From Thermoguttaceae bacterium (lineage in GTDB: Bacteria; Planctomycetota; Planctomycetia; Pirellulales; Thermoguttaceae), in assembly GCA_049515555.1 (NCBI GenBank), contig JBEKTY010000067.1, forward strand, positions 1-39,148: 39,148 nt of DNA, given 5' to 3'. The notes under the pieces are model-generated. The model was not told the DNA's origin. It was given only the letters and a program-made list of their open reading frames with translations, and did no database searches. Below, piece after piece: positions 3,689 through 39,094 of this stretch; the first letter of the stretch is position 1, and each line of letters starts with the position of its first letter. The translations under genes were made by a program, and so were the position numbers.

Positions 3689-3850
3689 GCGGTTAGGAAC
3701 CGCGAAAGAGTGCCTTGAGCAAGTTCCAGCGACGGTGGCACGTCCCTGAGCGCAGCGAAGGGCGTGGTTCTTCGCACCTCGCCACGCCCTTCGTCCCTCA
3801 GGGCGTGCCACCCCAGTTGGTCGACTTATCTCCTCGCGGTTCCTAACCGC
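3689..3850. repeat. Family-A palindromic MITE/REP-like element, copy 1. Core GGTGGCACGTCCCTGAGCGCAGCGAAGGGCGTG ... CACGCCCTTCGTCCCTCAGGGCGTGCCACC, flanked by 15-bp terminal inverted repeats gcggttaggaaccgc / gcggttcctaaccgc
   Basis: Inverted repeat read directly. The core recurs at 9164-9301, 14686-14798 and 28749-28856, with a 15-bp fragment at 6158-6172. The element is intergenic between the Hsp20 3' end and the URO-D-like start. Confidence 0.8.
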
Positions 3851-4563: not shown

Positions 4564-6018
4564 ATGTTAACGCTCATCAACAGCAATCGCATGCTGCCGC
4601 CGATCGCCCCGCTCGGGCTCGATTATGTGGGGGCGGCCGTGCGCCAAGCGGGGATCGAGGTCGATTTGCTCGACCTGTGCCTGGCAGACAATCCGGCCGG
4701 CGCGGTGCGGCACTACTTCCACACTCGGCAGCCCGAGTTGATTGGCGTCTCGTTTCGCAACATCGACGATTGTTTCTGGCCCAGCGGGGCGTGGTTCGTC
4801 CCGGACCTCGGGCAACTCGTGGCCCGTGTGCGCGGGCTATCGGGTGCGCCCGTCGTGCTGGGCGGCGTCGGATATTCGATCCTTGCCGCCGACGTGCTCC
4901 GCGCCTCCGGGGCCGATTTCGGCATCCGCGGCGACGGCGAACAGGCCGTCGTGGAATTGCTCGCCGAGTTGCGAGGCCCAAGGCGCTGGGATCGGGTGAG
5001 CGGGCTGCTGTGGCAAGAGGATGGCATAGTGCACGAGAACCGCCCGGCCTGGCCTGGCACACTGGCCGTACCGGCCGCCCGCGACATGGTAGACAACCCG
5101 ACGTATTTCCGCCTGGGCGGGCAGATCGGCGTGGAGAGCAAGCGCGGCTGTAGCCGCCAGTGCAGCTATTGCGTCGATCCGCTGGCCAAGGGCCCGACCG
5201 TCCGCCTGCGGCCGCCTTCCGACGTGGCCGGCGAGATGGAAGGCTTGCTCCGGCAGGGGATCGACGTATTCCACCTCTGCGATGCGGAGTTTAACCTGCC
5301 GCCCGGCCACGCCCGCGACGTCTGCGACGAGCTGATCCGCCGCGGGATTGGTTCCCGTAGCCGGTGGTATGCCTACCTTGCCGTCCTGCCCTTCGACGCG
5401 GACCTGGCAGGGCGGATGGCCCGGGCGGGCTGCGTGGGCATCAACTTCACCAGCGATTCGGCCAGCCCCGCCATGCTCGCCAGCTACGGGCAGCCGCATC
5501 GGCAGGCGGACCTCCGCGCGGCGATCGGGCACTGCCGGCAGCACGGCATTGCCGTCATGTGCGACCTGCTCCTGGGCGGTCCCGGCGAGACCGTCGACAG
5601 CGTTACGCAGTCCATCCGTTTCTTTCAGCAGGCCGGGCCGGATTGCGTGGGGGCGGCCCTGGGGCTTCGGCTCTATCCGTCAACGCGCATCACGGCCACG
5701 GTCGCCCAGGAAGGCCCGTGGGAGAGCAACCCCAGCATCCGCCGCCATTACGAGGGCCCGATCCATCTGCTGCGGCCCACGTTCTATATCTCAAGCCTGC
5801 TGGGCGAGCGGCCGGCCCGGTTGGTACGCGATCTGGTCGCCGGCGACCCGCGCTTCTTCGAGCCGGAAGAGGAAACCCCGGCCGCCGATCGGCCCGGCAT
5901 CGCGGGCGACCACAACTACAACGCCAACCGATCGTTGGCCAATGCAATACGTTCCGGCGCCCGGGGTGCATACTGGGATATTCTGCGAACTGGAAAAGGT
6001 GTCAGGAACCGTTTCTGA
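4564..6018 (+). CDS. B12-binding-domain radical SAM protein
   Basis: The ORF frame runs 4402-6018. The internal ATG at 4564 gives MLTLINSNRMLPPIAPLGLDYVGAA..., an N-terminal B12-binding-like Rossmann segment. The radical SAM motif CSRQCSYC (Cx3Cx2C) is present. Confidence 0.85.
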   Translation: MLTLINSNRMLPPIAPLGLDYVGAAVRQAGIEVDLLDLCLADNPAGAVRHYFHTRQPELIGVSFRNIDDCFWPSGAWFVPDLGQLVARVRGLSGAPVVLGGVGYSILAADVLRASGADFGIRGDGEQAVVELLAELRGPRRWDRVSGLLWQEDGIVHENRPAWPGTLAVPAARDMVDNPTYFRLGGQIGVESKRGCSRQCSYCVDPLAKGPTVRLRPPSDVAGEMEGLLRQGIDVFHLCDAEFNLPPGHARDVCDELIRRGIGSRSRWYAYLAVLPFDADLAGRMARAGCVGINFTSDSASPAMLASYGQPHRQADLRAAIGHCRQHGIAVMCDLLLGGPGETVDSVTQSIRFFQQAGPDCVGAALGLRLYPSTRITATVAQEGPWESNPSIRRHYEGPIHLLRPTFYISSLLGERPARLVRDLVAGDPRFFEPEEETPAADRPGIAGDHNYNANRSLANAIRSGARGAYWDILRTGKGVRNRF

Positions 6019-9159: not shown

Positions 9160-9305
9160 GGAGGGTGGCACGTCCCTGAGCGCAGCGAAGGGCGTGCTTT
9201 CCAGGCCCGCCACGCCCTTCGTTCCTCAGGGCGTGCCACCCAAATTGATCAACTTGTTCTTCGTTCCTCAGGGCGTGCCACCCAAACTGATCAACTTATT
9301 CTGTC
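9160..9305. repeat. Family-A element copy 3, whose right arm carries a 41-bp internal tandem duplication (9219-9260 and 9261-9301)
   Basis: The core ggtggcacgtccctgagcgcagcgaagggcgtg ... cacgcccttcgttcctcagggcgtgccaccc was read directly. It is followed by a near-identical second copy of cgttcctcagggcgtgccacccaaa(t/c)tgatcaactt. Confidence 0.8.
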
Positions 9306-9314
9306 GCTTACGGC

Positions 9315-14627: not shown

Positions 14628-14633
14628 GAAAAG

Positions 14634-14661
14634 TAGCAGGCACACTCCGTGTGCCTGCTTA
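14634..14661. terminator. Hairpin agcaggcacac-tccg-tgtgcctgct, 7 nt after the FGE-domain gene stop. It is a candidate terminator shared with the convergent gene
   Basis: 11-bp perfect stem read directly. Related copies of the same motif occur at 18201-18278. Confidence 0.45.
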
Positions 14662-14667
14662 CAATAA

Positions 14668-14798
14668 CTTGAGCAAGTTCCAGCGAGGGTGGCACGTCCC
14701 TGAGCGCAGCGAAGGGCGTGCTTCTTCGCACCGCGGCACGCCCTTCGTCCCTCAGGGCGTGCCACCCTAATTGGTCAACTTATTTCCTCGCGGTTCCA
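14668..14798. repeat. Family-A palindromic element copy 4
   Basis: gagcaagttccagcga + gggtggcacgtccctgagcgcagcgaagggcgtg ... cacgcccttcgtccctcagggcgtgccaccctaattggtcaacttatttcctcgcggttcc. It sits between two convergent genes. Confidence 0.8.
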
Positions 14799-14859
14799 AA
14801 GCAGCCCGCACGCCCCGTGTGCGGACATGCGGCACACGGCCGGCGGCCGCTGCAAGGGC

Positions 14860-15810
14860 TCAGTCTTTGGCTTCTGCCTGATCGAGATTATGCTTGTCGA
14901 TGACGACCGGCGTGAGGTACACCTCTTTGGATGGCGGCGTCTTCCCGTCGCGAAGCTTGGCCACGAGGAACCCCAGGGCCTTGCGGGCTTGCTGCCCGGG
15001 AAACTGCTCGATGGAAGCCGTCAGCCGGCCTTGCTTGATGCACGCGGCCGCGTCGGGAATGACGTCGTAGCCCACGCTAACGACTCGCCCGGGCGGCATG
15101 CCATGGGCCGCCATGGCTTCCAGGGCGCCCAGCACCATCTCGTCGTTGGCGGCATACAGCGCCTGGAAATCGCCGTGCACCTGGAGCAGGTTCTCCATCA
15201 CCGACTGACCCTTGGCCCGATAGAATTCGGCGCTCTGGCTGGCCAGGAGCCGGAGCGGGGAGGCGGCCAGCACCTCCTCGAAGCCGCGCTTGCGATCAAT
15301 CGCCGGCGAGGCCCCGGGCGTCCCCTCCAGCTCGATCACCGCGCCCTTGCCGCCGAGTTTCTGGAGGATATATCGGGCCGCGATCCGGCCGCCTTCGACA
15401 TTGTCGCCCCCCACGTGAACCAGCACGTCGCCGCCTTCCACTTTGCGATCGACGGTGGCCAGGGGGATGCCGGCGCGGTTGAGGGCCTCCACCGCGGGCA
15501 CCAAGGCCGCGGACCCGATCGGCGCCATCACGACGCCGTCCACCCCCTGGGCAATGAAGTCCTCAACGATCGCCATCTGCTTGGCTGCGACGTCTTCAGC
15601 ATCGGCGGCGATCAGCCTCACGCCAAGCTTCGCCGCCTCGTCCGCAACGTGCTTCTTAATGCAGATGAAGAAGGGGTGCGAGAGCGAGGGGACCGTCAGA
15701 CCGATGACGATCTGCCGTTTCTCGGTCGGACTCCGCCGACAGCCGGCAAGCCCAAAGCCAACGGCCAGCGCCAGAGCTGCCAAGCCCAGAAGCATCGCAC
15801 GTCTTTTCAT
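14860..15810 (-). CDS. Sugar ABC transporter substrate-binding lipoprotein (RbsB/LacI-type periplasmic binding fold); orphan, with no adjacent permease or ATPase
   Basis: The ORF frame runs 14860-15948. The internal ATG at 15810 gives MKRRAMLLGLAALALAVGFGLAGC, a lipobox. The periplasmic-binding-protein type-I pattern follows. The upstream extension of the frame reads through a repeat element and is not counted. Confidence 0.8.
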   Translation of the reverse strand: MKRRAMLLGLAALALAVGFGLAGCRRSPTEKRQIVIGLTVPSLSHPFFICIKKHVADEAAKLGVRLIAADAEDVAAKQMAIVEDFIAQGVDGVVMAPIGSAALVPAVEALNRAGIPLATVDRKVEGGDVLVHVGGDNVEGGRIAARYILQKLGGKGAVIELEGTPGASPAIDRKRGFEEVLAASPLRLLASQSAEFYRAKGQSVMENLLQVHGDFQALYAANDEMVLGALEAMAAHGMPPGRVVSVGYDVIPDAAACIKQGRLTASIEQFPGQQARKALGFLVAKLRDGKTPPSKEVYLTPVVIDKHNLDQAEAKD

Positions 15811-15847
15811 GGCATCTACCTTCTTACCGGAGTTTTGCAAGTTGGGG

Positions 15848-16007
15848 TGAGGACGATACAAGTGGTCCCCCTCTCCCTCCGGGAGAGGGCCGGGGTGAGG
15901 GGAACCTGTGTTGGTCACGAAAAATGGGAAAACAGTATCCTCACCCATTCCCCCTCACCCTAACCCTCTCCCGGAGGGAGAGGGGACCGACCAATCCGCA
16001 ATTTGCA
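15848..16007. repeat. Family-B palindromic MITE-like element copy 1 (tgaggac ... caatttgca), with ~38-bp inverted arms containing the ccctctccc-N3-gggagaggg palindrome and ggggtgagggg
   Basis: Arms read directly: ggtccccctctccctccgggagagggccggggtgagggg / cccctcaccctaaccctctcccggagggagaggggacc. A second, roughly 85% similar copy by eye lies at 35811-35966. Confidence 0.8.
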
Positions 16008-16019
16008 TTAGTCCAGTTC

Positions 16020-18194
16020 TTACTCGAACGCCTTCGGCACGGTCGGCAGGTCGCGGGTCAGCAGGGGCGGAGCGGTCCGGCCCGCCTTCGAGTAATCAAA
16101 CGGCTTGAAGCCCAGCTTCAAGGCCGGCGAGTTCTCCTTCAGGCGGAAGTCGTCCTTCTCCGCAGCCACGAACAGGGGGTCGGCCACGATCGAGTGCTGG
16201 TCCTGGCCGAACTTCTTTTGCCATTGCTCGAAATTGAAGTCGGCGAAGAAGCGGATCGGCTTGCCCTGGTTCCAATACACGTTGTAGTCGAGCTTGTAGT
16301 GGTTGTCCCACCAGTTGTTGCCCAGCACGAGATTGGCGTTGTCCCAGTACACGATGTTTCGCTCGAGGAAGAACGACGTATGCGGCTCCGGCCTGGTCCG
16401 CTGCCACTGGGCCTCGTCGCCGAAGGCGAAGATGTTGTTCTGGATGTGGTTCTCCTTGCCGTAATGCTGGTGGAAGCCGCCCGAGTGGGCGCGGTACACC
16501 AGGTTGTTCTCCATCAGGATGCCGCTGGAACCCTCGTCGGTGTACAGCCCGTAACCGCCGTAATCGTGCGACTTGACGTCGTGGCAAAGGTTGTCGTGCA
16601 CCCGCGTGCCGGGCGAGACGCCCAAGGTGTAAACGGCGCCCATGTCCGAGAGCACGTTCTGGCCGAGCGTATGGATGTGATTGAAGCCGATGTCGTTGTG
16701 ATGCGTATGGCTGGGACCGTAGCCCCAGGTCCAGCCCACGGAGATCCCCGTGTAGTAGAAATCGTAGATGTCGTTGTGCTCGATAACGTTATGGGGCGAA
16801 TGAGCGATCCACACGCCGACGGCCGCCGGGTGCATGCGGCCGCCGTGGGCGATCAGGCACCCGCGGACCGTGTGCCGCGCGGGGATCTTCTGTTCATCGT
16901 TCTCCGTGACCCAGCCGTACATGGGGCCGCTGCCCGCGTGCCCGATCTTCACCCCGCCGGCCGCCATGTCGACCATCTCGCAGTTCTGGACGAGGTTGTC
17001 GCGGCATCCGGCGCCGAAGGCCATGGCATAACCGCCCACGTGCCGCACGGCACAAGCGTCGAAGACCAGGTTTCGGGCCCCGATCGCCGAAACGGCCCCG
17101 TCCAGGTTCACCTCCGCCTGGCCGCAAGCCTGGCCCCGCCCGGGCATGGCCCAATTGGCATGCGCCAGTGTCAGGCCCCGAAAACGAACATGCTCGACCC
17201 AGCGGCGGGCGGCCGGGTCGCCCTCCACAACCACCAGCCGTTCCAACCGCGGGGCGATGATCGCGCAGCTTTCCGGCTTCTCGCCCGGCAGGGGCACATA
17301 GGTCAGCTCGCCGCTTGTCCGGTCCAGGTACCACTGGCCCGGCTCGCCGAGCGCTTCCCGCACGTTGTCCACCAGGAATCGCTCCCCTTTGGGGAAGGCG
17401 CCCAATTCGTCCGGCCCCTCGGCGGCCCCCGCCAGCGTGACCACGCGCTGGGCCACATCCAGCGAACCGACGTGCAGCCGCATGGCAGTCCAGCCGCGAA
17501 AGACCTGGACTTCCAGGTCGCCGCGATTGGCCCAGTCGGCCCGCAGGTCGTCGCCCGAGTACCCGAACCGGTCGTGCCACTTGCGTCCGGCCTTTTCAAT
17601 GGGCGGGAAGTCCTGGGCAATCTTGTAATAGCCGTGCTTGGGCAGGCGCGGGCGGAACCGCCGCCCGTCGTTCACGAAGAGTTGCGCGAACGACCATTTC
17701 CCGGCCTTCACGTCGTCCAGAACCTTATGCCAGCGGCCGTCGCCGCCGGTCTGCCAGCCCTCCAGCCGCACTCCGCCGCTGAGGATCGGTCGTTCCTGGC
17801 CATAGGCCGCGTAGACGATGGGAATCTGCGCCGTGCCGGAATCCTCCGGGCCGAAATGGATGGGCTTGGAAAGAAAGTACGTCCCGCCGCGGATGGCCAC
17901 GACGATCGGACCGCTGCGGCCCGGCTGTCCCTTCCACGTACGAACGACCTGTTGGGCACGCTCGACGGTCGCCAGCGGACCGTCCGTTTTGGCGGCGTTG
18001 GGTCCGGAAAGCCGGCCCGACCAGGCGTCGTTGCCTTGCGGCGAGACGAAAAGGTCGGCCTCGCCCTGTGCCACGGGTTCCACAATCGCCCCCGCGCTTT
18101 GCTCGCCGGCCCGGCTCGGACCGGCCGTTGCCGCCAGCAGAATCCCCGCGGCCATCGCCATCGCAAGTCTCGTTTTCACAGTGGCGCCTCCCAT
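16020..18194 (-). CDS. Secreted right-handed parallel beta-helix repeat protein (pectin-lyase-fold; glycan-active enzyme candidate)
   Basis: 724-aa ORF with a signal peptide (MAMAAGILLAATAGPSRA). There are many Asn/His-rich repeat turns (NNLVYRAHSGGFHQHYGKENHIQNNIF...), characteristic of beta-helix carbohydrate-active proteins. The exact start (18194, 18161 or 18155) is uncertain. Confidence 0.7.
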   Translation of the reverse strand: MGGATVKTRLAMAMAAGILLAATAGPSRAGEQSAGAIVEPVAQGEADLFVSPQGNDAWSGRLSGPNAAKTDGPLATVERAQQVVRTWKGQPGRSGPIVVAIRGGTYFLSKPIHFGPEDSGTAQIPIVYAAYGQERPILSGGVRLEGWQTGGDGRWHKVLDDVKAGKWSFAQLFVNDGRRFRPRLPKHGYYKIAQDFPPIEKAGRKWHDRFGYSGDDLRADWANRGDLEVQVFRGWTAMRLHVGSLDVAQRVVTLAGAAEGPDELGAFPKGERFLVDNVREALGEPGQWYLDRTSGELTYVPLPGEKPESCAIIAPRLERLVVVEGDPAARRWVEHVRFRGLTLAHANWAMPGRGQACGQAEVNLDGAVSAIGARNLVFDACAVRHVGGYAMAFGAGCRDNLVQNCEMVDMAAGGVKIGHAGSGPMYGWVTENDEQKIPARHTVRGCLIAHGGRMHPAAVGVWIAHSPHNVIEHNDIYDFYYTGISVGWTWGYGPSHTHHNDIGFNHIHTLGQNVLSDMGAVYTLGVSPGTRVHDNLCHDVKSHDYGGYGLYTDEGSSGILMENNLVYRAHSGGFHQHYGKENHIQNNIFAFGDEAQWQRTRPEPHTSFFLERNIVYWDNANLVLGNNWWDNHYKLDYNVYWNQGKPIRFFADFNFEQWQKKFGQDQHSIVADPLFVAAEKDDFRLKENSPALKLGFKPFDYSKAGRTAPPLLTRDLPTVPKAFE

Positions 18195-18200
18195 GCGAAG

Positions 18201-18278
18201 GTAACAGGCACACTCCGTGTGCCGTCCGCCATGCCTTTGTCCGCTTCAGCGGACGGCACACGGAGTGTGCCTGCTACC
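18201..18278. promoter_or_regulatory. Nested palindrome in a divergent intergenic region: two inverted copies of (a)ggcacac-tccg-tgtgcc flanking an inner hairpin gtccgc...gcggac
   Basis: Read directly: gtaacaggcacactccgtgtgccgtccgc catgcctttgtcc gcttca gcggacggcacacggagtgtgcctgctacc. Confidence 0.5.
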
Positions 18279-18406
18279 TTCATGCCGTAAACGGTTACCG
18301 TAAAGACAATACCCCCACGATTACGAACTGTTCATCCTAACCTCGCGCCCTTACGGCTGCAACGCAGGAGAGAGTGCGAAGGAAAGGACTCGCGGCGCGG
18401 AGACGA

Positions 18407-21801: not shown

Positions 21802-21809
21802 AAGGTTGT

Positions 21810-21887
21810 GGTGGGGCTCGCTAGCGCTCGACCCACCCTACATCTTCGCCTCCTCGTAGGGTGGGTCGAGCGCTAGCGAGCCCCACC
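21810..21887. terminator. Perfect 32-bp inverted repeat with 14-nt loop between convergent genes (candidate bidirectional terminator)
   Basis: ggtggggctcgctagcgctcgacccaccctac atcttcgcctcctc gtagggtgggtcgagcgctagcgagccccacc, read directly. Confidence 0.7.
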
Positions 21888-21895
21888 AGAACCCG

Positions 21896-28745: not shown

Positions 28746-28856
28746 CGCGGGGTGGCACGTCCCTGAGCGCAGCGAAGGGCGTGGTTTGCGGGCCTGCCAC
28801 GCCCTTCGTCCCTCAGGGCGTGCCACCCAATTGTCAAACTTGTTCTTTCGTGGGCC
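28746..28856. repeat. Family-A palindromic element copy 5, inserted in a short operon spacer and flanked by a perfect 20-bp direct repeat ttagcatttaaccacactcc (28725-28744 and 28857-28876; +/-1 nt)
   Basis: Core and flanking direct repeats read directly. The left direct repeat contains the stop codon of the upstream gene. The right one sits immediately 5' of the ggagg RBS of the next gene. Confidence 0.8.
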
Positions 28857-30300: not shown

Positions 30301-30441
30301 CTAGCCGCCGGCCTTCTTCAGCTTCCTAGCCTTCTTCTTTGGCTTAGCCTGGAGCAGCCGTTTGACGGCCTCTTCAAAGGGCAGGTCGATTTTGTTGCTG
30401 TGCGGCCCGTTCCTGGCGCTCACAGCAGTGTGCTTCTTCAT
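30301..30441 (-). CDS. Small lysine-rich ORF (46 aa, MKKHTAVSARNGPHSNKIDLPFEEAVKRLLQAKPKKKARKLKKAGG). It overlaps the 3' end of the upstream gene in another frame. It is either a separate small protein or the true C-terminus after a frameshift
   Basis: Translated by hand from the minus strand. It starts inside the final 67 nt of the 166-aa ORF and has a basic C-terminal tail. Confidence 0.25.
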   Translation of the reverse strand: MKKHTAVSARNGPHSNKIDLPFEEAVKRLLQAKPKKKARKLKKAGG

Positions 30442-30874
30442 GGCCGGATCGCCGTCGCCTCATGATTGTGACAACCTCTCCATACGCACCGTCCGCCAAC
30501 ACTTCCGGTGTGGCGTGGTTTATATCGTCCTCCGGACCAAGCTTGCTTGTCCACGTACCGTCCGCAATTAGTTGACGGGCCGCGTGTGTATACATGCCCT
30601 CACGACCATAGACAGCGATCCTTTCGTATTCCGGTTCGCACGCGGCGGAATCGCAGGCAACATATCCGTACCGCTCAAAGACGCGAACGAGCGATTGAAC
30701 TTTGTAGTTGCAGTAAGGCGGACCGACGGGCCAAAAGCGGCCTGTTACGGGCTCCCACCATTCCCCCCGCGCACCGCAGGCATGCGCGATACAGTTTTCA
30801 TCGGGTACCGGATCGCTGGTCAGGCGATAGTTACCCGTTCGCATGTTGGGGAAGTCTGCAAGGTTAATCGTCAC
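30374..30874 (-). CDS. Hypothetical 166-aa protein with conserved Cys/His positions (possible papain-like Cys-His hydrolase fold; unassigned)
   Basis: GTG start overlapping the upstream stop (GTGA), so it is translationally coupled. The motifs DENCIAHACG, GMYTHAARQL and GTWTSKLG...DDINH suggest a Cys/His catalytic arrangement. The C-terminal 20 aa may be a frame artefact. Confidence 0.5.
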   Translation of the reverse strand: MTINLADFPNMRTGNYRLTSDPVPDENCIAHACGARGEWWEPVTGRFWPVGPPYCNYKVQSLVRVFERYGYVACDSAACEPEYERIAVYGREGMYTHAARQLIADGTWTSKLGPEDDINHATPEVLADGAYGEVVTIMRRRRSGHEEAHCCERQERAAQQQNRPAL

Positions 30875-31614
30875 TTAGCGTACCCGTTTCCTTTACCCCA
30901 GGCTAGCCAGGCGTTGGCAATTTCTCGGAGCTTTCCCCAAGACTCCCGAGGAACTGGATCGCTGCCCGTGATGGCACGCAGCGCCCAGTCCCAGTGATCG
31001 GGTCGTTCTCGCATTTCTTCGAGCAGCAACGGAATCGCGCGGTCTCCCATGCCGATTATCTGCTGGTACGCGGGATGTATCACCAGGTCTGTCAGCTTGG
31101 AGCTGTGGCCGCGATCGGATTTCCAGACAGCGACCAGATTGCTGAAACGTTGCCGCACCGCCTCATGCACCGGCTCTGGCAAACACCCCTCACTCCCACG
31201 CATGGCCTCTCGGATTCGCAGCGCCAGGGACCAGGCCGACTTCGGTGTCACTCCTAGCTCGCGGGCGATCTGGCGGCTGCTGACGCCCTTGCTGCTGCTG
31301 GTCATCAGGTCGAGGGCCCTAAGCCATTTGGACAGCGGCAGCTTGCTTTCCTCGAAGATCGTACCGACCCTTACCGTGAATTGTCGGCGGCAATCCTTGC
31401 ACTTCTTCAGCCCTAGCCGACCAGGACTCTTGCTTCCCGGCTTAGCGACAAGTGGGTAGCCTTTCCCGCCACAATAAGGGCAAACCGGAACACCATTTGG
31501 CCAGCGTTGAGTCTCCAGGAAGCACCGTGCCCGGCCCTCGTCTGTAAAAAGCGCCGAAAGGTTGGTAGGATACGCCTTGGCGGCAGTTCCGGTAAGGGGA
31601 TTCTTCGCGGTCAT
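30871..31614 (-). CDS. Zinc-ribbon + HTH protein whose N-terminus resembles an IS1595-type transposase N-terminal DNA-binding module, fused to a non-DDE ~105-aa C-terminal domain (domesticated transposase-derived regulator candidate)
   Basis: The ORF frame runs 30871-31710. The ATG at 31614 follows gaggaag. The pattern ETQRWPNGVPVCPYCGG...KCKDCRRQFTVRVGTIFEESKLPLSKWLRALDLMTSSSKGVSSRQIARELGVTPKSAW matches, by memory, the Zn_Tnp_IS1595 + HTH pattern (LRWPNG..CP.CG....C..C...FS...GTIF...KLPL.KW...YLM...KGISA.QL...LGV..KTAW). There is no EVDETY/DDE block afterwards. Confidence 0.6.
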   Translation of the reverse strand: MTAKNPLTGTAAKAYPTNLSALFTDEGRARCFLETQRWPNGVPVCPYCGGKGYPLVAKPGSKSPGRLGLKKCKDCRRQFTVRVGTIFEESKLPLSKWLRALDLMTSSSKGVSSRQIARELGVTPKSAWSLALRIREAMRGSEGCLPEPVHEAVRQRFSNLVAVWKSDRGHSSKLTDLVIHPAYQQIIGMGDRAIPLLLEEMRERPDHWDWALRAITGSDPVPRESWGKLREIANAWLAWGKGNGYAK

Positions 31615-31678
31615 AGCTTCCTCGCCTACCCACAATTGTACCCTGATGATCGGGTTTGCCAAGTATAACATTCCACAG

Positions 31679-34600
31679 ATGATACTTGCCCCCCTCTTGC
31701 TCTTGTTCACCGGTGCACTGCTGCCATCGGCCGTTCCGCTGTCCGCGGCGACGCCAGAGCCGGTCGCTATTGCGGCCTTGCCTAAACTGCACAGCGGCGT
31801 GCCAGCCTATCCGGTTCCGTTCATGGCCGTCGCCCGCACGCCGCATACAATCGCCCCCTTGCCCGGCAGGGCCATCGACATCCAAACCGACTTCGGCTAT
31901 CCGGCCGGTTTTTCCGGACTGGTGGACGCGGCGATCGGATCGGTGGGCTACCCCGGCTATCGCAATTTCTCGAACCTGGACATCGCCTACGACGCCGAGA
32001 AGCTTTGCCTGCTGGTTTGCGTGCCCTATCCTTACGGGCGGAAGACGCGGGCCCAGGCCACCGAGCCCTCGCCCGAGCTGCTCGCCGACGACGTCTTCGA
32101 GGTGCTCATCGATCCGCGCGACGAGCAGGGCCGCTCGAAGGGCCCGCTGTATCGCGTCGTGGGCAACGCCGCCGGCGTGTGCCGGATCGACCGCGACCTG
32201 CCGCAAATCGGCCAGCCGCACCAGGCGTGGCAGGCGGCGGTAAAATACGGCAGCATGATGTGGGACCCCATGGGAAGCTGGATGGCCGCCGTGCAGATTC
32301 CCTTCCACGATCTGGGCGGGGCGCCCAAAGACGGCCAGGTGTGGGGCATCCAGGCCGCCCTCCGCTACGTCGATCCGAAGATCACCGCCGTGCTGTCGCC
32401 GGCCGACGATTTTACCGATCGCGCGCGCTTCGCCCGGCTGCGCTTCGACGCCGGGCGGAGGGCCAATTACCGCTGCCATTGGCTCTCGGCCGACGAGATC
32501 AAGCAGGGGACCTTCTGCGTGGGCGGCATCTTCAGCAACGGCGCCCATGAGCCGGCATGGTTCGACGGCCGCGTGACGCTGCAGAAGGGCGATCGGCCGC
32601 TGGGCGGCGGAACCTTCGCCCACGCCGCCCAGCCGCTCTCGAAATACGACGGCGACATGGAGCCCTGTCGATTCCCGTCGCAAGCCTCCGGTCCCACCCA
32701 GCGCGACACTGTCGCCCGGTTGGTAGTGACCGACCGCCAGGCCGCAACGATCGTGTACGACCAGTTCCTGCCGTACTGGCAAATGGCCCCCGGCGAGCGC
32801 GACTGGCTGAAGCGGCATTTCGCCAGGGAATTCACCTTCCACGCCGGCCCTTATCCGTCCCGCGGCGCGATCGACTACCGCATCGACTGCCAGACGTTGA
32901 TGGAGGCCCTGCCCCAGGCGGCCCGGGCCGTGGTGACGGTCACTAGCGGCGGCCGGCAGTTGGCCCGGCAGGAACAGCCGCTGCCCAAGGACGGCAAGAT
33001 CGCCGAGACGATCAACGTCGGCGCCATGACCGACGGGGCGACGTATGAGATCGCCGCGGCCATCGTCCGCAGCGACTCTCAGCCCCTCAGTACGCAGCGC
33101 GAAACCTTCACGCGGAAGGTCATGCCGTTCGAGACCGCCCCGCCGGCCGGTGTGGCGGACCTGGTGTCGCCGCCCTTCACGCCGCCCAAGATCGGCCAGG
33201 ACAGTATCGCCTGCATCGGGCGGACCTATACGCACGGCCGGCAAGGCCTCTTGGAAAGCCTCGTCGCCGCCGGCCGGGAGCTGCTCGCCGCTCCGGCCAC
33301 TCTGAAGGTGAAGGTCGGCGATCAGGCCGCCGTGGCCCTGGCCGGCGACGCGCCCACGCTGGCCGCCCACGGAAAAGGGCAGGCTGCCTGCCGGCAGACG
33401 TTCGCCGGAGCGGGGCTGAAAATGACGGTCGACGGCCGTTTCGACTACGACGGTTTCTACCGCTTCTCGGTGCTACTCGCGCCCGGCGCGGCGGCGGTGG
33501 ACCTCAAGCAGTGCTACTTGGAGCTGCCCATCCGGGAGTCGCACGCCACGCTCATGGACGCGCCCGTGGAGTGGATGTCGAAGGACTGGCGCCGCTCGAC
33601 CGGCTTTCTTCCCGCGGCGCAAGGCCGCCTATGGGACTCCAAGCGATTCCCCTTCGCCGTGCGGGAGCGCAAGGGCAACATGCCGCCCTACTGCTGGATC
33701 GGCGACGACGACCGCGGCATTGGCTACTCCTGCGCCTCGGACCAGGGCATGCACAACGACGACGCCCTGCCCGCCGTAACCATCGATCGCGAAGGCCGGG
33801 CGGTGGTCTTGCGGGCCTGGTTCGTCAACAAGCCCCTCACGCTCGGTGCGCCGCGGACTTTCCAATTCGCCTTGCAGGCCAGCCCCTATAAACCCCTCGA
33901 TCCTCAACACCGCCTGTGGCGCTGCGGCGTGGCCCGGCCCGAGTGCTGCTACGGACCGTCTGGCCGCTACTTTCACTCGGGCTGGGGAATCGGCTGCTAT
34001 TATCCGACGTACGGGCGATTCCTGGACCTCGACCGGAACGCCGAGGCCATCCGCCGCGTCCGCCGCTCGGGCTACGACTTCATCGCCGCCTCCGCCTCCG
34101 CCTGCTCCGAGTGCGGCGGCACACCCGAGTACCAGCAGTTCTGGCGCGAGTGGGGTAGCGCCCTGGGCTGGGACAAAATGCCCCTGGGTCCCTTGCCGGA
34201 ATGGATGCAGAAACTTATGAAAGACTCGGGCCGGCCCTACACCGGCTACGTGGCCGTGGAAAGCGCCTCCAATAGCGCCCCCAGCAACTTGGACTATCGT
34301 GCCTGGTGGTTCCAGCAGGTGGCCGCCAATTGCGACACGAGCATGATCTACCAGGACAATCCGCCCTACGGCTACTTCGATCAGCCGGCCGTGGGCTACG
34401 GCTACACCCGCGACGACGGCCTGCGCGAGCCGACCTCGGCCACCTGGAACGCGCGGACCTTTATGCGACGGGCCCTGCACATAGCCGTCGAGAGCGGCAC
34501 CCGCAACCCGGCCCCGGGTGTCTATCCCAACATCTGCGGCTCGGCCCAAGCGGGCCGCAGCTTCTGCTTCCGCGGCCTCATAGGCGAAGACCTCGAGTCC

Positions 34601-35800: not shown

Positions 35801-35810
35801 CTGTGTTTCA

Positions 35811-35966
35811 TGAGGACCGCACAGACTCTCCCGCTCCCTCCGGGAGAGGGTCGGGGTGAGGGGAACCTGCGTCGGCCACGAAAACTCGAAAGGCCGGGTC
35901 ATCACGTATTGCCCCTCACCCTAGCCCTCTCCCGGAGGGAGAGGGGACCGGGCACCCCAATTTGCA
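35811..35966. repeat. Family-B palindromic MITE-like element copy 2
   Basis: tgaggaccg...ctccctccgggagagggtcggggtgaggggaacctgcgtcggccacgaaaa...cccctcaccctagccctctcccggagggagaggggacc...ccaatttgca. It has the same termini and arms as the copy at 15848-16007. Confidence 0.8.
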
Positions 35967-35998
35967 AAACGCCAGCCACAACGACGGAGAACTTCCCA

Positions 35999-38900
35999 AT
36001 GACAAAAACCATCGCACACATGCTGACAGTATTTGCCATGGCCTTGCTCCTGGCCCCGCCGGTGCGGTCGGGCGCTACCCAGGAGCAACCCGCTGGGGCT
36101 GCGGCCAAGTACCGGGGCTGTCAACATTCAGGTTCCCTCTACATCTTGACCACGCCCGAGGGCGCGGATTTGCCGGCCACGGCCTCGGAAGAGGGCTTCC
36201 CGCTGCTGGTGCGGCTGACGAGCGACTTCTTCAATTTCAGCCAGGCCCAGGCCAACGGCGAGGACATTCGTTTCACCGGCGGCGGCGCGCCGCTGGCCTA
36301 TCAGATCGACGACTGGGATGCGGCCAGCGGAACCGCCAGCATCTGGGTCCGCGTGCCGAAGATCAAGGGCAACGCCCGGCAGGAGATAAGAATGTACTGG
36401 GGCCAGCCCGATGCGGTCAGTCGGTCCAGCGGAACCGCGGTGTTCAATGCGTCCAACGGATATCTCGGCGTCTGGCACATGAGCCAGCCGGTGAAGGATG
36501 AGGTTGGCAAGCTCGAATCGCACGATACGGGCACCACGTCTTCTGCCGGCATTATCGGCCAGAGTCGGCGCTTCGGCCCAGGCAAGGGGATCAACTGCGG
36601 CGAAGACATCACCACCCTTCCGCGCGGCTCCAGTCCTCATTCTTCCGAAGCCTGGTTCCGGGCCGAGAAGCCCAACGCCACCGTCCTGGCCTGGGGCAAC
36701 GAGCAGGGCCAGGGTAAAGTGGTGATGCAACTGGCCAGTCCGCCGCATATCAACATGGATTGCTATTTTTCAGGCGGAAACGTTGCCAGCACCAACAGGC
36801 TCCCCATTGCCCAATGGATTCATGTGGCCCACACCTACAAGCACGGCGATTCACGGATCTACGTGAATGGGGTTCTGGACGGCGTCCGCACGACCAAAGG
36901 CGCCCCGCTGGCCATCAAGAGCCCGGCCAGGATGTATATCGGCGGCTGGTACAACAACTACGGCTTCGTCGGCGACATCGACGAGGTGCGCATCTCAGAT
37001 GTCGCTCGCTCGCCCGACTGGGTGCGGCTGGAATACGAGAACCAGAAACCCCTGCAAACGCTGGCCGGGCCGCTGGTGCCCGCCGGCGCCGACTTCTCGG
37101 TCTCAGAGAAGAAAATGAACTTACTGGAAGGCGCCAGCACCAGCGTAACGGCCAAGGCCGGCGGTGCGCAGAAGGTCTATTGGATCCTGAAAAGAGGCTC
37201 GCGGGAACAAATCGCCGCCGTGGACCGGTTAAGTTTCACCTTTGACGCCGGCCGGGTGGCGGAAGACGAGTCGCTCACGATTCAACTCAAGGCGATTTGC
37301 GCCAACGAAATCAAGATTCGGAACATACCCGTCACCATCAAGAAGTCGATTCCTGATCCGGCGTTCACACTGCAAGCGCCTGCCAAGTGGGACGGACGGG
37401 AGTCGATCGAGCTTGTGCCGCAAATCGCCAATTTTAGGGAAATGCAGGCCAAGGGCGTCGGTGCGCTGAAGTATAACTGGACCGTTTCCGGCATGGCCGT
37501 GATAAAGGAAATTGCGCCCGGCAAGCTCCTGCTCAAGCGTGCGCAGAACAGCGGCACGCTCGTCGTGAAGCTGGGCCTCAGCAACGGCGGCACGGAGATT
37601 TCGCGCGCGGCCACGATAACGGTCAAGGAGCCTGCCAAGGATGCGTGGGTCGAGCGCACGCCGGACAAGGACGAGAAACCGGTCGACCATCAGTTCTACG
37701 CCCGCGACGACGGCAATGAAGGCACGCTGTACTACAACGGCTCGTTGTCCAACGCCGCCGACGCCGTCTTTCTGAAGGTCTATGCCGGCGACAAGCTTTT
37801 CAAGACCGAAAGCCGGAAACTCGCGGCGGACAAGACTTATGCGTTCTCGATCAAGCTCAAGCCGGGACTCATCAAGTACAAAGTGGAGTTCGGGACCACC
37901 ACGGGCGGCCGCGAGACGGTTCTGCATACGGTTGCCGACCTGGTGTGCGGGGATGCCTACCTGATTGACGGTCAATCCAACGCGCTGGCCGTGGATTGGG
38001 GGCCGGGCGAGCACCCCGACACAAGCCCGTGGATCCGAACTTTCGGTTCCCCGGGCGGGGATGCCGGCAAGGGCTGGGCCAATGCGGTCCGTCGCCATGG
38101 CCCATGCGAGATCGGCTATTGGGGCATGGACCTCGCCCGCCGCCTGCTGGAAAGCCGGAAGATGCCGATCTGCATCATCAACGGCGCGGTCGGAGGCACC
38201 TTGATCGAGATGCACCAGCGAAATCCCGCCAATCATACCGATCCGCAGACGATCTACGGACGCTTGTTGCGGCGGGTGGAACTGGCCCGGCTGACCCACG
38301 GCATTCGCGGCGCCTTCTGGCACCAGGGCGAGAACGACCAGGAAGCCCAGGGCGCCACCGGCGGCTACGGCTGGGAGAAGTACCAGCAGTATTTCGTAGA
38401 CATGTCGGCCGCCTGGAAAGAGGATTATCCCAATCTTCAGCGATACTACATCTTCCAGATCTGGCCCAACTCGTGCTCCATGGGCGGCCGCCCGTCCAGC
38501 GACAAGCTGCGCGACGAGCAGCGAACCTTGCCGCGCCTCTACTCCAATATGAGCATCATGTCCACGTTGGGCATCAAGCCTCCCGGGCCCTGCCATTTTC
38601 CTCCCGCCGGCTACGCCGAGATGGCCCGGTTGATAACCCCGCTCGTGGAGCGCGACAACTACGGAAAGGTCTTCCAGAACCCCATTACGCCTCCCGACCT
38701 GAAGAAGGCATACTATACCAGCGGCACGCGGAATGAGATTGCGCTGGAGTTCGACCAGCCCATGGCCTGGAACGACGCCCTGACCACTCAGTTCTACCTG
38801 GACGGCAAAGAGGGCCGGGTGGCCTCGGGCGCCGTCTCCGCAAACGTGGTCACGCTCAAGCTGCCCTCGTCGGCCGACGCGAAAACGATCACCTACCTTG

Positions 38901-39037
38901 TCGACAAGAAGTGGGACGATAAGAACCTGCTGTACGGCCGGAACGGCATCGCCGCGCTCACCTTCTGCGAGGCGGCAATCTCGCCCGCACAATCGGTTTC
39001 CCCTCTCCTTCCGGGAGAGGGGCAGGGGGTGGTCTGA
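35999..39037 (+). CDS. Secreted multidomain protein: N-terminal LamG/concanavalin-A-like (DUF2341-like) domain, Ig-like repeats, C-terminal sialate O-acetylesterase (SASA/DUF303, GQSN motif) domain
   Basis: The ORF frame runs 35810-39037. The ATG at 35999 gives a signal peptide MTKTIAHMLTVFAMALLLAPPVRSGA. The LamG-like block (IRMYWGQPDA...VWHMSQ) is present. The C-terminal YLIDGQSNALAV ... FWHQGEND pattern is typical of SASA-type carbohydrate esterases. Confidence 0.75.
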   Translation: MTKTIAHMLTVFAMALLLAPPVRSGATQEQPAGAAAKYRGCQHSGSLYILTTPEGADLPATASEEGFPLLVRLTSDFFNFSQAQANGEDIRFTGGGAPLAYQIDDWDAASGTASIWVRVPKIKGNARQEIRMYWGQPDAVSRSSGTAVFNASNGYLGVWHMSQPVKDEVGKLESHDTGTTSSAGIIGQSRRFGPGKGINCGEDITTLPRGSSPHSSEAWFRAEKPNATVLAWGNEQGQGKVVMQLASPPHINMDCYFSGGNVASTNRLPIAQWIHVAHTYKHGDSRIYVNGVLDGVRTTKGAPLAIKSPARMYIGGWYNNYGFVGDIDEVRISDVARSPDWVRLEYENQKPLQTLAGPLVPAGADFSVSEKKMNLLEGASTSVTAKAGGAQKVYWILKRGSREQIAAVDRLSFTFDAGRVAEDESLTIQLKAICANEIKIRNIPVTIKKSIPDPAFTLQAPAKWDGRESIELVPQIANFREMQAKGVGALKYNWTVSGMAVIKEIAPGKLLLKRAQNSGTLVVKLGLSNGGTEISRAATITVKEPAKDAWVERTPDKDEKPVDHQFYARDDGNEGTLYYNGSLSNAADAVFLKVYAGDKLFKTESRKLAADKTYAFSIKLKPGLIKYKVEFGTTTGGRETVLHTVADLVCGDAYLIDGQSNALAVDWGPGEHPDTSPWIRTFGSPGGDAGKGWANAVRRHGPCEIGYWGMDLARRLLESRKMPICIINGAVGGTLIEMHQRNPANHTDPQTIYGRLLRRVELARLTHGIRGAFWHQGENDQEAQGATGGYGWEKYQQYFVDMSAAWKEDYPNLQRYYIFQIWPNSCSMGGRPSSDKLRDEQRTLPRLYSNMSIMSTLGIKPPGPCHFPPAGYAEMARLITPLVERDNYGKVFQNPITPPDLKKAYYTSGTRNEIALEFDQPMAWNDALTTQFYLDGKEGRVASGAVSANVVTLKLPSSADAKTITYLVDKKWDDKNLLYGRNGIAALTFCEAAISPAQSVSPLLPGEGQGVV
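39003..39035. repeat. Partial family-B palindrome (cccctctccttccgggagaggggcagggggtgg) embedded in the last 11 codons of the CDS (…SPLLPGEGQGVV*)
   Basis: Read directly. It shares the ccctctcc-N-ggagaggg palindrome plus the gggg(g)tg motif with family B. Confidence 0.5.
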
Positions 39038-39094
39038 ATAAAACCCAATAATTTTGGCAAACTGGGCTTGTTAGGTTCTTTGAAATCTGTTGCG

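Follow-up and report, generated by a model that had tools for sequence, protein, structure and literature searches.

Within the window (the whole 39,148-nt stretch of Thermoguttaceae DNA analysed here), a palindromic repeat occurs at three places. The first copy separates a gene for a right-handed beta-helix protein (16020-18194, minus strand) from a gene for a periplasmic sugar-binding lipoprotein (Peripla_BP_4; 14860-15810, minus strand). The second copy lies upstream of a DUF2341/Laminin_G_3/SASA gene (35999-39037, plus strand), and a single palindromic unit forms the 3' end of that same gene. The initial annotation had described these as two full copies and one partial copy of a MITE-like element with inverted arms. 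Both of the longer copies are located where they had been placed, and are 85% identical across 124 nt (15866-15989 versus 35827-35950). The inverted arms are real, measuring 34-35 nt per copy, with 88-91% complementarity and 48 nt between them, and the third, single unit was found at 38999/39000-39032, where it falls within the final 12 codons of the DUF2341/Laminin_G_3/SASA gene. Four occurrences of the arm core, GGGAGAGGGNNNGGGTGAGGGG, were counted in the window, where 0.05 would be expected. Folded as RNA, one copy reaches -94 kcal/mol (z = -8.2 versus shuffles) and the other -94.7 kcal/mol (z = -6.9); the computed fold of copy 1 as single-stranded DNA is -59 kcal/mol (z = -8.0).

The element has no coding capacity of its own. 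Two mechanically called ORFs cross the repeat, at 14860-15948 (minus strand) and 35810-39037 (plus strand), and encode PLPEGEG and PLPPGEGRGEG, respectively. These are artefactual extensions of the adjacent genes, as had been suspected for the binding-protein gene: both ORFs extend upstream of the true signal-peptide starts, which are at 15810 and 35999.

Each arm is made up of a small hairpin and, after it, a G-rich tail, with the layout CCCTCTCCC-TCC-GGGAGAGGG-NNN-GGGTGAGGG. Holder et al. 2015 described a motif with the sequence 5'-CCCTCNCCC N3-6 GGGNGAGGG N3 GGGNGAGGG-3', which was called BoxC in the 1990s, PIT (potential intrastrand triplex) in 2000, and TM_ECO in 2015 (PMC4666352). Their census of 262 proteobacterial genomes counted 3610 copies of the motif, and 23 for E. 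coli MG1655, always in intergenic DNA; five inverted pairs were described, always combining a type A unit (TTA as the second loop) with a type B unit (CCG) (PMC4666352). The same study reported no promoter or terminator activity of PIT/BoxC in E. coli and no association of the motif with mobile elements, but did report an association with local genomic instability in E. coli (PMC4666352). The same sequences were later described as a G-quadruplex/hairpin switch (Kaplan et al. 2016, PMC5100583).

The TM_ECO pattern is matched exactly by three arms in the window, at 15869-15901 (plus strand), 15952-15984 (minus strand), and 35913-35945 (minus strand), with zero matches expected, and the fourth arm has a single mismatch. 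The second loops are paired as CCG with TTA in copy 1, and as TCG with CTA in copy 2. The arm sequence also includes the G-tracts G3-N3-G3-N3-G3-N3-G3, although folding was computed for hairpins only. The arms had been read in the initial annotation as 38-bp transposon ends. They are instead an internal inverted pair of the described BoxC/PIT/TM_ECO motif, and because this pair, type B plus type A, surrounds the 48-nt spacer, the whole element is a long hairpin.

Evidence for the true ends of the element came from a search with a probe spanning the junction of arm and spacer, which was used to query 185,579 species genomes and JGI metagenome samples (Ga01878xx). The probe had no match among the 185,579 species genomes, indicating that the source lineage is absent from the species representatives, and it matched 10 JGI metagenome contigs. 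Two of these contigs represent the window's own locus, and the other eight have unrelated flanks. Copy 1 aligns end to end with these eight peat-metagenome loci at 85-92% identity. The alignment directly exposes an outer 18-bp terminal inverted repeat (TIR), CTGGACTTTTGCAAATTG ... CAATTTGCAAAAGTCCAG, as well as short direct repeats that flank the element and vary in sequence between loci. The true ends are therefore not "tgaggac" and "caatttgca", as initially annotated; on each side the TIR lies about 20 nt outside those ends, with a 6-bp duplication beyond it.

Copy 1 is thus a complete element of 190 bp (15827-16016, plus strand), in which a TIR, a linker, a type B BoxC arm, the spacer, an inverted type A BoxC arm, a second linker and a second TIR follow one another. 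The left TIR, CCGGAGTTTTGCAAGTTG (15827-15844, plus strand), has three mismatches to the consensus CTGGACTTTTGCAAATTG, and the right TIR, CTGGACTAATGCAAATTG (15999-16016, minus strand), has two; the window as a whole contains three matches to the TIR consensus, compared with 0.01 expected. The type B unit occupies 15868-15902 (plus strand) and reads CCCTCTCCC-TCC-GGGAGAGGG-CCG-GGGTGAGGG, an exact TM_ECO pattern. It is followed by the 48-nt spacer (15903-15950; AACCTGYGTYGGYCACGAAAA...), which served as the family-specific probe, and by the inverted type A unit (15951-15985, minus strand), with TTA as its second loop, which also matches the published pattern exactly. The element is flanked by identical target-site duplications, TTCTTA, at 15821-15826 and 16017-16022. 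In 43 of 76 related elements, the same register yields perfect 6-mers.

Those related elements were found by searching with the TIR alone, which occurs at no fewer than 116 loci in species genomes; about 85 of the loci listed are in Planctomycetota metagenome-assembled genomes (MAGs). Among the matches listed, about 50 contigs belong to Thermogutta sp. AS27yjCOA_190 and about 22 to one 'Blastopirellula marina' MAG, a copy number and range that are directly observed. Other hosts among the matches listed include Thermoguttaceae from SPRUCE peat and Pirellulales, and the remaining listed matches are single chance matches within genes of unrelated phyla. The TIR-bounded planctomycete elements have a modal length of 166 bp and range from about 125 to 190 bp, with derivatives that are shorter. 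In elements with two TIRs, the flanking 6-mers are identical in 43/76 cases and differ at one position in another 11/76, where the chance of identity is 1/4096 per element. The profile of 48 perfect duplications is T-T-A-T-A-A, with 23% GC; the idea that insertion points share a target motif is thereby upheld, since the sites are AT-rich and TTATAA-like. The family is accordingly defined by its 18-bp TIRs, CTGGACTTTTGCAAATTG, together with a 6-bp AT-rich target duplication, and the original description of the repeat as "MITE-like" is borne out: it is a dispersed, multi-copy element with terminal inverted repeats and target-site duplications.

Several subfamilies can be told apart by their interiors, while the TIRs and the 6-bp duplication are common to them. 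The type found in the window has two good BoxC arms. The Thermogutta/Blastopirellula type is homologous over its full length but has a decayed left arm, and in the SPRUCE/Pirellulales type the TIR abuts the BoxC unit. There are also 73-bp derivatives with a single hairpin, and types of 123-134 bp that have no BoxC, such as those at L210 (127 nt) and L237 (123 nt). Since some subfamilies without BoxC have the same TIRs and duplications, the TIR-plus-duplication system is independent of BoxC. As judged from the sequences of the subfamilies, the BoxC pair may act as body or cargo in some of them.

Two further observations concern rearrangement within the family. The 73-bp derivatives (L183 4459-4531, L218 366-438, and L208 10-82) keep both TIRs and hold only one CCCCTCGCCC-TTT-GGGAGAGGGG hairpin, which is the outcome expected of a deletion between the two palindromic arm cores; the L183 derivative has a perfect TTAAAT duplication. 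Two other elements, L123 1006-1194 and L130 335-520, have the left flank and the MITE in common and differ in their right flanks, and the duplication is intact in L123 only. This pattern points to recombination between MITE copies or to chimeric assembly at the repeat.

The insertion site of copy 1 falls at the junction of its two flanking genes. On the minus strand, the beta-helix gene ends in a TAA stop codon that coincides with the last three positions of the right duplication (16020-16022), and orthologues of the beta-helix protein likewise stop directly after ...FE. The ribosome-binding region of the Peripla_BP gene consists of the left duplication, which reads TAAGAA on the minus strand, and the GG that follows it; the start codon of this gene is 11 nt from the duplication and 17 nt from the end of the MITE. 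The reconstructed empty site is ...TTCGAGTAAGAAGGTAGATGCCATG..., or, on the minus strand, ...TTC GAG TAA GAA GGTAGATGCC ATG. Before insertion, the stop codon of the beta-helix gene would have been followed directly by the ribosome-binding region and start of the binding-protein gene. Copy 1 would have entered at TAAGAA, that is, at the stop codon of one gene and the beginning of the ribosome-binding site of the next, with both signals surviving: the duplication of TAAGAA left a stop codon to the upstream gene and GAAGG to the downstream gene. The two genes are now parted by a hairpin of -94 kcal/mol. An empty site was looked for at four orthologue loci of the beta-helix gene and at three of the LamG/SASA gene; none was recognisable there, as the neighbouring genes differ and there is no synteny. 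All three strain contigs examined carry the copy 1 insertion.

The second copy in the window (35811-35975, plus strand) retains both arms (35830-35863, with one mismatch to the pattern, and 35912-35946), the spacer, and the right TIR (35958-35975), and is 81-87% identical to other copies. Its left TIR and target-site duplication are not recognisable, either by alignment to other copies or in the TIR scan, which makes copy 2 an immobile fossil, probably an older copy that has lost one end. The count of two full copies thus stands for copy 1, which is complete, and fails for copy 2, which has no left end.

The solo unit, copy 3 (38999-39032, plus strand), reads TCCCCTCTCC-TTCC-GGGAGAGGGG-CAG-GGGGTGG and gives the DUF2341/LamG/SASA protein its ...SPLLPGEGQGV tail, after which comes the stop codon at 39035-39037. 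It is a BoxC-like unit, as its assignment to the same type of repeat had implied, but its best match is found in another subfamily, the Pirellulales/SPRUCE-type MITE, where it resembles the left arm (30/33 matches with L152). All 119 of 119 orthologues of the LamG/SASA protein end shortly after ...ALTFCEVPI, typically with ...SPAxPxP. An alignment of these C-termini contradicts the notion that the PLLPGEG tail is ancestral: it is present in 0/119 orthologues, and elsewhere was found only in a 100%-identical fragment from the same organism. The DNA of the LamG/SASA gene is colinear with that of the orthologue at L253 up to tcgcccgcacaa, and then departs into the repeat. This break in colinearity indicates that copy 3 replaced the last three codons and the stop codon; it now contributes 14 codons and a new stop. 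Copy 3 may therefore be pictured as a solo arm that overwrote the end of the gene. A candidate for a decayed right TIR 3' of copy 3 (39050-39070) was rejected, since 15-134 of 500 shuffles scored equally well. Copies 2 and 3 lack the diagnostic ends, and their presumed derivation from the MITE draws on interior homology.

The window contains other repeats. A palindromic family, GGGTGGCACGTCCCTGAGCGCAGCGAAGGGCGTG...CACGCCCTTCGTCCCTCAGGGCGTGCCACCC, has four intergenic copies of 81-133 nt (3714-3846, 9163-9307, 14668-14800, and 28750-28852), one of which is a 1.5-copy tandem. A third hairpin repeat is built on GGCACACGGAGTGTGCC and occurs at 14630-14655, 14798-14823, and 18197-18281; one of its copies has 33-nt arms that are 97% complementary, and on a metagenome contig that is related (L255, about 4790-4840) a similar hairpin is situated 3' of an orthologous gene. 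Isolated palindromes are located at 21804-21893, 453-515, and 79-148. The isolated palindromes include one with 38-nt arms of 97% complementarity (I1), a perfect 29-nt hairpin with A/T runs at its sides that resembles a terminator (I7), and a G18...C16 homopolymer near the start of the window (I12).

The element at copy 1 is very probably a non-autonomous DNA transposon (MITE), one of a family spread through the Planctomycetota (Pirellulales/Thermoguttaceae). The best named protein matches and the distribution of the TIR family suggest as host a planctomycete from peat that is Pirellulales/Thermoguttaceae-like. Under this model, a transposase encoded elsewhere would bind both TIRs, cut AT-rich hexamers with a 6-bp stagger, and insert the element. 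In a GC-rich genome, AT-rich hexamers would fall mostly at gene ends and in intergenic DNA. We infer that mobilisation occurs in trans, by a DDE-type transposase, and that the BoxC pair would be a passenger rather than part of the machinery. A search for an autonomous element in about 130 loci found no pair of TIRs 0.6-4 kb apart with a duplication. The ORFs beside unpaired TIRs are ordinary genes, one of them TrpD-like as judged by eye, and other TIR-adjacent ORFs are FabZ-like chance matches in Bacteroidota. A scan of viral contigs with the TIR gave only chance matches inside phage genes, and a search for the TIR sequence in the full-text collection found nothing relevant.

The only transposase-like gene in the window, at 30871-31710 (minus strand), is followed by a DUF7689 gene (30374-30874, minus strand). 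It encodes an IS1595-type Zn-ribbon (PF12760, 30.7 bits), its match to the IS1595 transposase model is confined to the first ~50 positions, and its product is a Zn-ribbon/HTH protein with no catalytic domain. Domestication or truncation of a transposase may account for this gene. The duplications made by IS1595 elements are 8 bp long, and for this reason, together with its lack of a DDE domain, the gene is not proposed as the mobiliser. Duplications of 5-6 bp are typical of IS1634 and IS481.

An alternative model, which is compatible with the MITE explanation, is that the G-rich BoxC pair is a functional core kept by selection or gene conversion, with the MITE as a mere vehicle. The role of such a core would be at the DNA level, for example as a hotspot of recombination or instability, or as a protein-binding site. 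Evidence in support of this model comes from the pattern of conservation in the window's subfamily, where the TIRs are 75-87% identical and the BoxC arms 97-99% identical. Variable columns number 4/66 in the arms, compared with 33/67 in the TIRs and linkers (p = 1.5e-8) and 16/33 in the part of the spacer outside the probe (p = 2e-6). Arms that change several-fold more slowly than the ends are not expected under a simple MITE model in which the ends matter and the inside is junk, and this is a point against the explanation favoured here. Moreover, the same motif with the same A + B pairing occurs in E. coli with a common 3' extension, GGGGACYGAYC; the arm core is present in at least 120 IMG/VR contigs, often as inverted pairs among the matches listed; the elements at L123 and L130 are alike in one flank and not the other; and the motif has been tied to genomic instability in E. 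coli (PMC4666352). On the other side, the conservation of the arms is derived from just eight metagenomic copies, which may be related to each other. In addition, every copy in the Thermogutta-type subfamily has a decayed left arm, and conservation there is highest in the TIRs, so the conservation of arms is not general; subfamilies without BoxC transpose too; and no function has ever been demonstrated for BoxC. That the pair is a functional core is thus an improbable but serious alternative, and there is a similarly modest chance that the BoxC/triplex-G4 pair is a unit actively maintained and shared across phyla rather than inert cargo. If it were, a conserved process specific for the sequence or structure of BoxC would be implied, such as a binding protein, gene conversion, or a function in recombination or replication, and the MITE would be the first identified vehicle spreading the motif.

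The MITE model also has to be weighed against a role in RNA, in which the repeat would be a cis-regulatory hairpin, a terminator, an attenuator, an mRNA stabiliser, or a small RNA, conserved for its function in transcripts. This possibility is raised by the high stability of the hairpins (-94 kcal/mol, z about -7 to -8) and by the location of both longer copies between co-directional genes, where any read-through would transcribe them. However, no Rfam match was found at the gathering score, and relaxed thresholds gave only generic noise from miRNA hairpins; scans for a U-tract terminator and a sigma-70-like promoter found neither; copies 1 and 2 are oriented oppositely relative to their co-directional flanking genes; and PIT/BoxC had neither promoter nor terminator activity in E. 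coli (PMC4666352). Nor does a role in transcripts account well for TIRs and duplications. A function in RNA is therefore very unlikely to explain the repeat, although the insertion could have a side effect on operon expression, as we infer that read-through transcripts would carry a very stable hairpin.

A third alternative is that the element is a set of inverted REP-like palindromes, copied as a hairpin by a RAYT (IS200/IS605-like) rather than moved by a cut-and-paste transposase. There are clear parallels with REPINs and BIMEs, in that two inverted palindromic units of ~35 nt, each a hairpin, are separated by a short spacer outside genes, and in that copy 3 is a solo unit, as solo REPs are. 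Nevertheless, exact 6-bp target-site duplications flank the elements, and IS200/IS605-type and RAYT enzymes are not known to make duplications of this kind. A separate 18-bp TIR, which is common to subfamilies that have no BoxC units, forms the termini, and no Y1 transposase domain was detected in the 23 window ORFs scanned. A passage in Di Nocera et al. 2013 describes REP palindromes as having a conserved tag, GTAG or CGTC, at one of their ends (PMC3733652), and as read from the window sequence, no such tetranucleotide abuts the units here. A RAYT-type origin is consequently even harder to credit than a function in RNA. Chance similarity or an assembly artefact can be dismissed, as it has nothing in its favour beyond the low copy number inside the window itself, shuffle controls gave 0/100, and 5 metagenome samples, as well as >10 MAGs of separate projects, contain independent copies.

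The MITE as a kind of element and the BoxC/PIT/TM_ECO motif, including its A + B inverted pairs, are both already known. The searchable literature yielded no MITE family with these termini, no BoxC motif in Planctomycetota, and no BoxC pairs within an element bearing the footprints of transposition. In planctomycete annotations, the family accounts for "PLPxGEG" peptides and for ORFs that are spuriously extended at the N-terminus. Its copies in the window also provide two cases of contact with genes: a MITE inserted exactly at an operon junction, with the stop codon and ribosome-binding site spared, and a repeat-derived C-terminal tail on a carbohydrate-active enzyme.

Well-known bacterial MITEs include Correia/NEMIS of Neisseria, RUP of Streptococcus pneumoniae, and Nezha of cyanobacteria. 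Like these, the planctomycete elements are small and non-coding, have TIRs and duplications of fixed length, reach dozens of copies per genome, are mostly intergenic, can form a long hairpin, and are occasionally fused to the ends of genes. They differ from the named MITEs in their TIR sequence, which is new (a search of the full-text collection did not turn it up), in their family-specific 6-bp AT-rich target, and in having a body built of a motif that also exists alone in other phyla. Rickettsia palindromic elements (RPE) are palindromic repeats that can enter coding sequences and add residues. Copy 3 likewise adds residues to a coding sequence, but it replaces the C-terminus rather than lying in frame inside a domain, and the sequences are unrelated. 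REPINs and BIMEs resemble the element in that two inverted palindromic units make a larger hairpin and solo units occur beside doublets; the duplications and separate TIRs described here set it apart, as does the absence of a GTAG/CGTC tag and of a RAYT in the window.

The closest parallels are with BoxC of E. coli, which is likewise intergenic and forms A + B inverted pairs, with a pattern that 3/4 of the window arms match exactly. The window arms also share the 3' extension GGGGACYGAYC with the four BoxC pairs of MG1655 that were aligned (L247-L250); this likeness, GGGGAC(C/T)GA(C/T)C at 15985-15995 of the window, lies outside the published motif on the type A side. Moreover, single-hairpin deletion derivatives occur in the planctomycete family as they do for E. 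coli BoxC. An inverted BoxC-like pair was also observed at L259 6379-6467, on a contig that carries an orthologue of the beta-helix protein (78% identity); no TIR match was found anywhere at that locus with up to 4 mismatches. There are three differences from published BoxC. The host belongs to the Planctomycetota, whereas the census covered 262 proteobacterial genomes; the spacer is 48 nt long, compared with 16-27 nt in MG1655; and the pair lies inside a shell of 18-bp TIRs and 6-bp duplications, whereas no link to mobile elements was found in E. coli, and no TIRs or duplications of this type were found around the MG1655 pairs. BoxC entered the literature in the 1990s as a strongly conserved intergenic repeat, and was explicitly reported as unlinked to mobile elements. 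The presence of a BoxC pair inside an element marked by transposition extends the range of the motif to the Planctomycetota, and provides at least one concrete, testable route for its multiplication.
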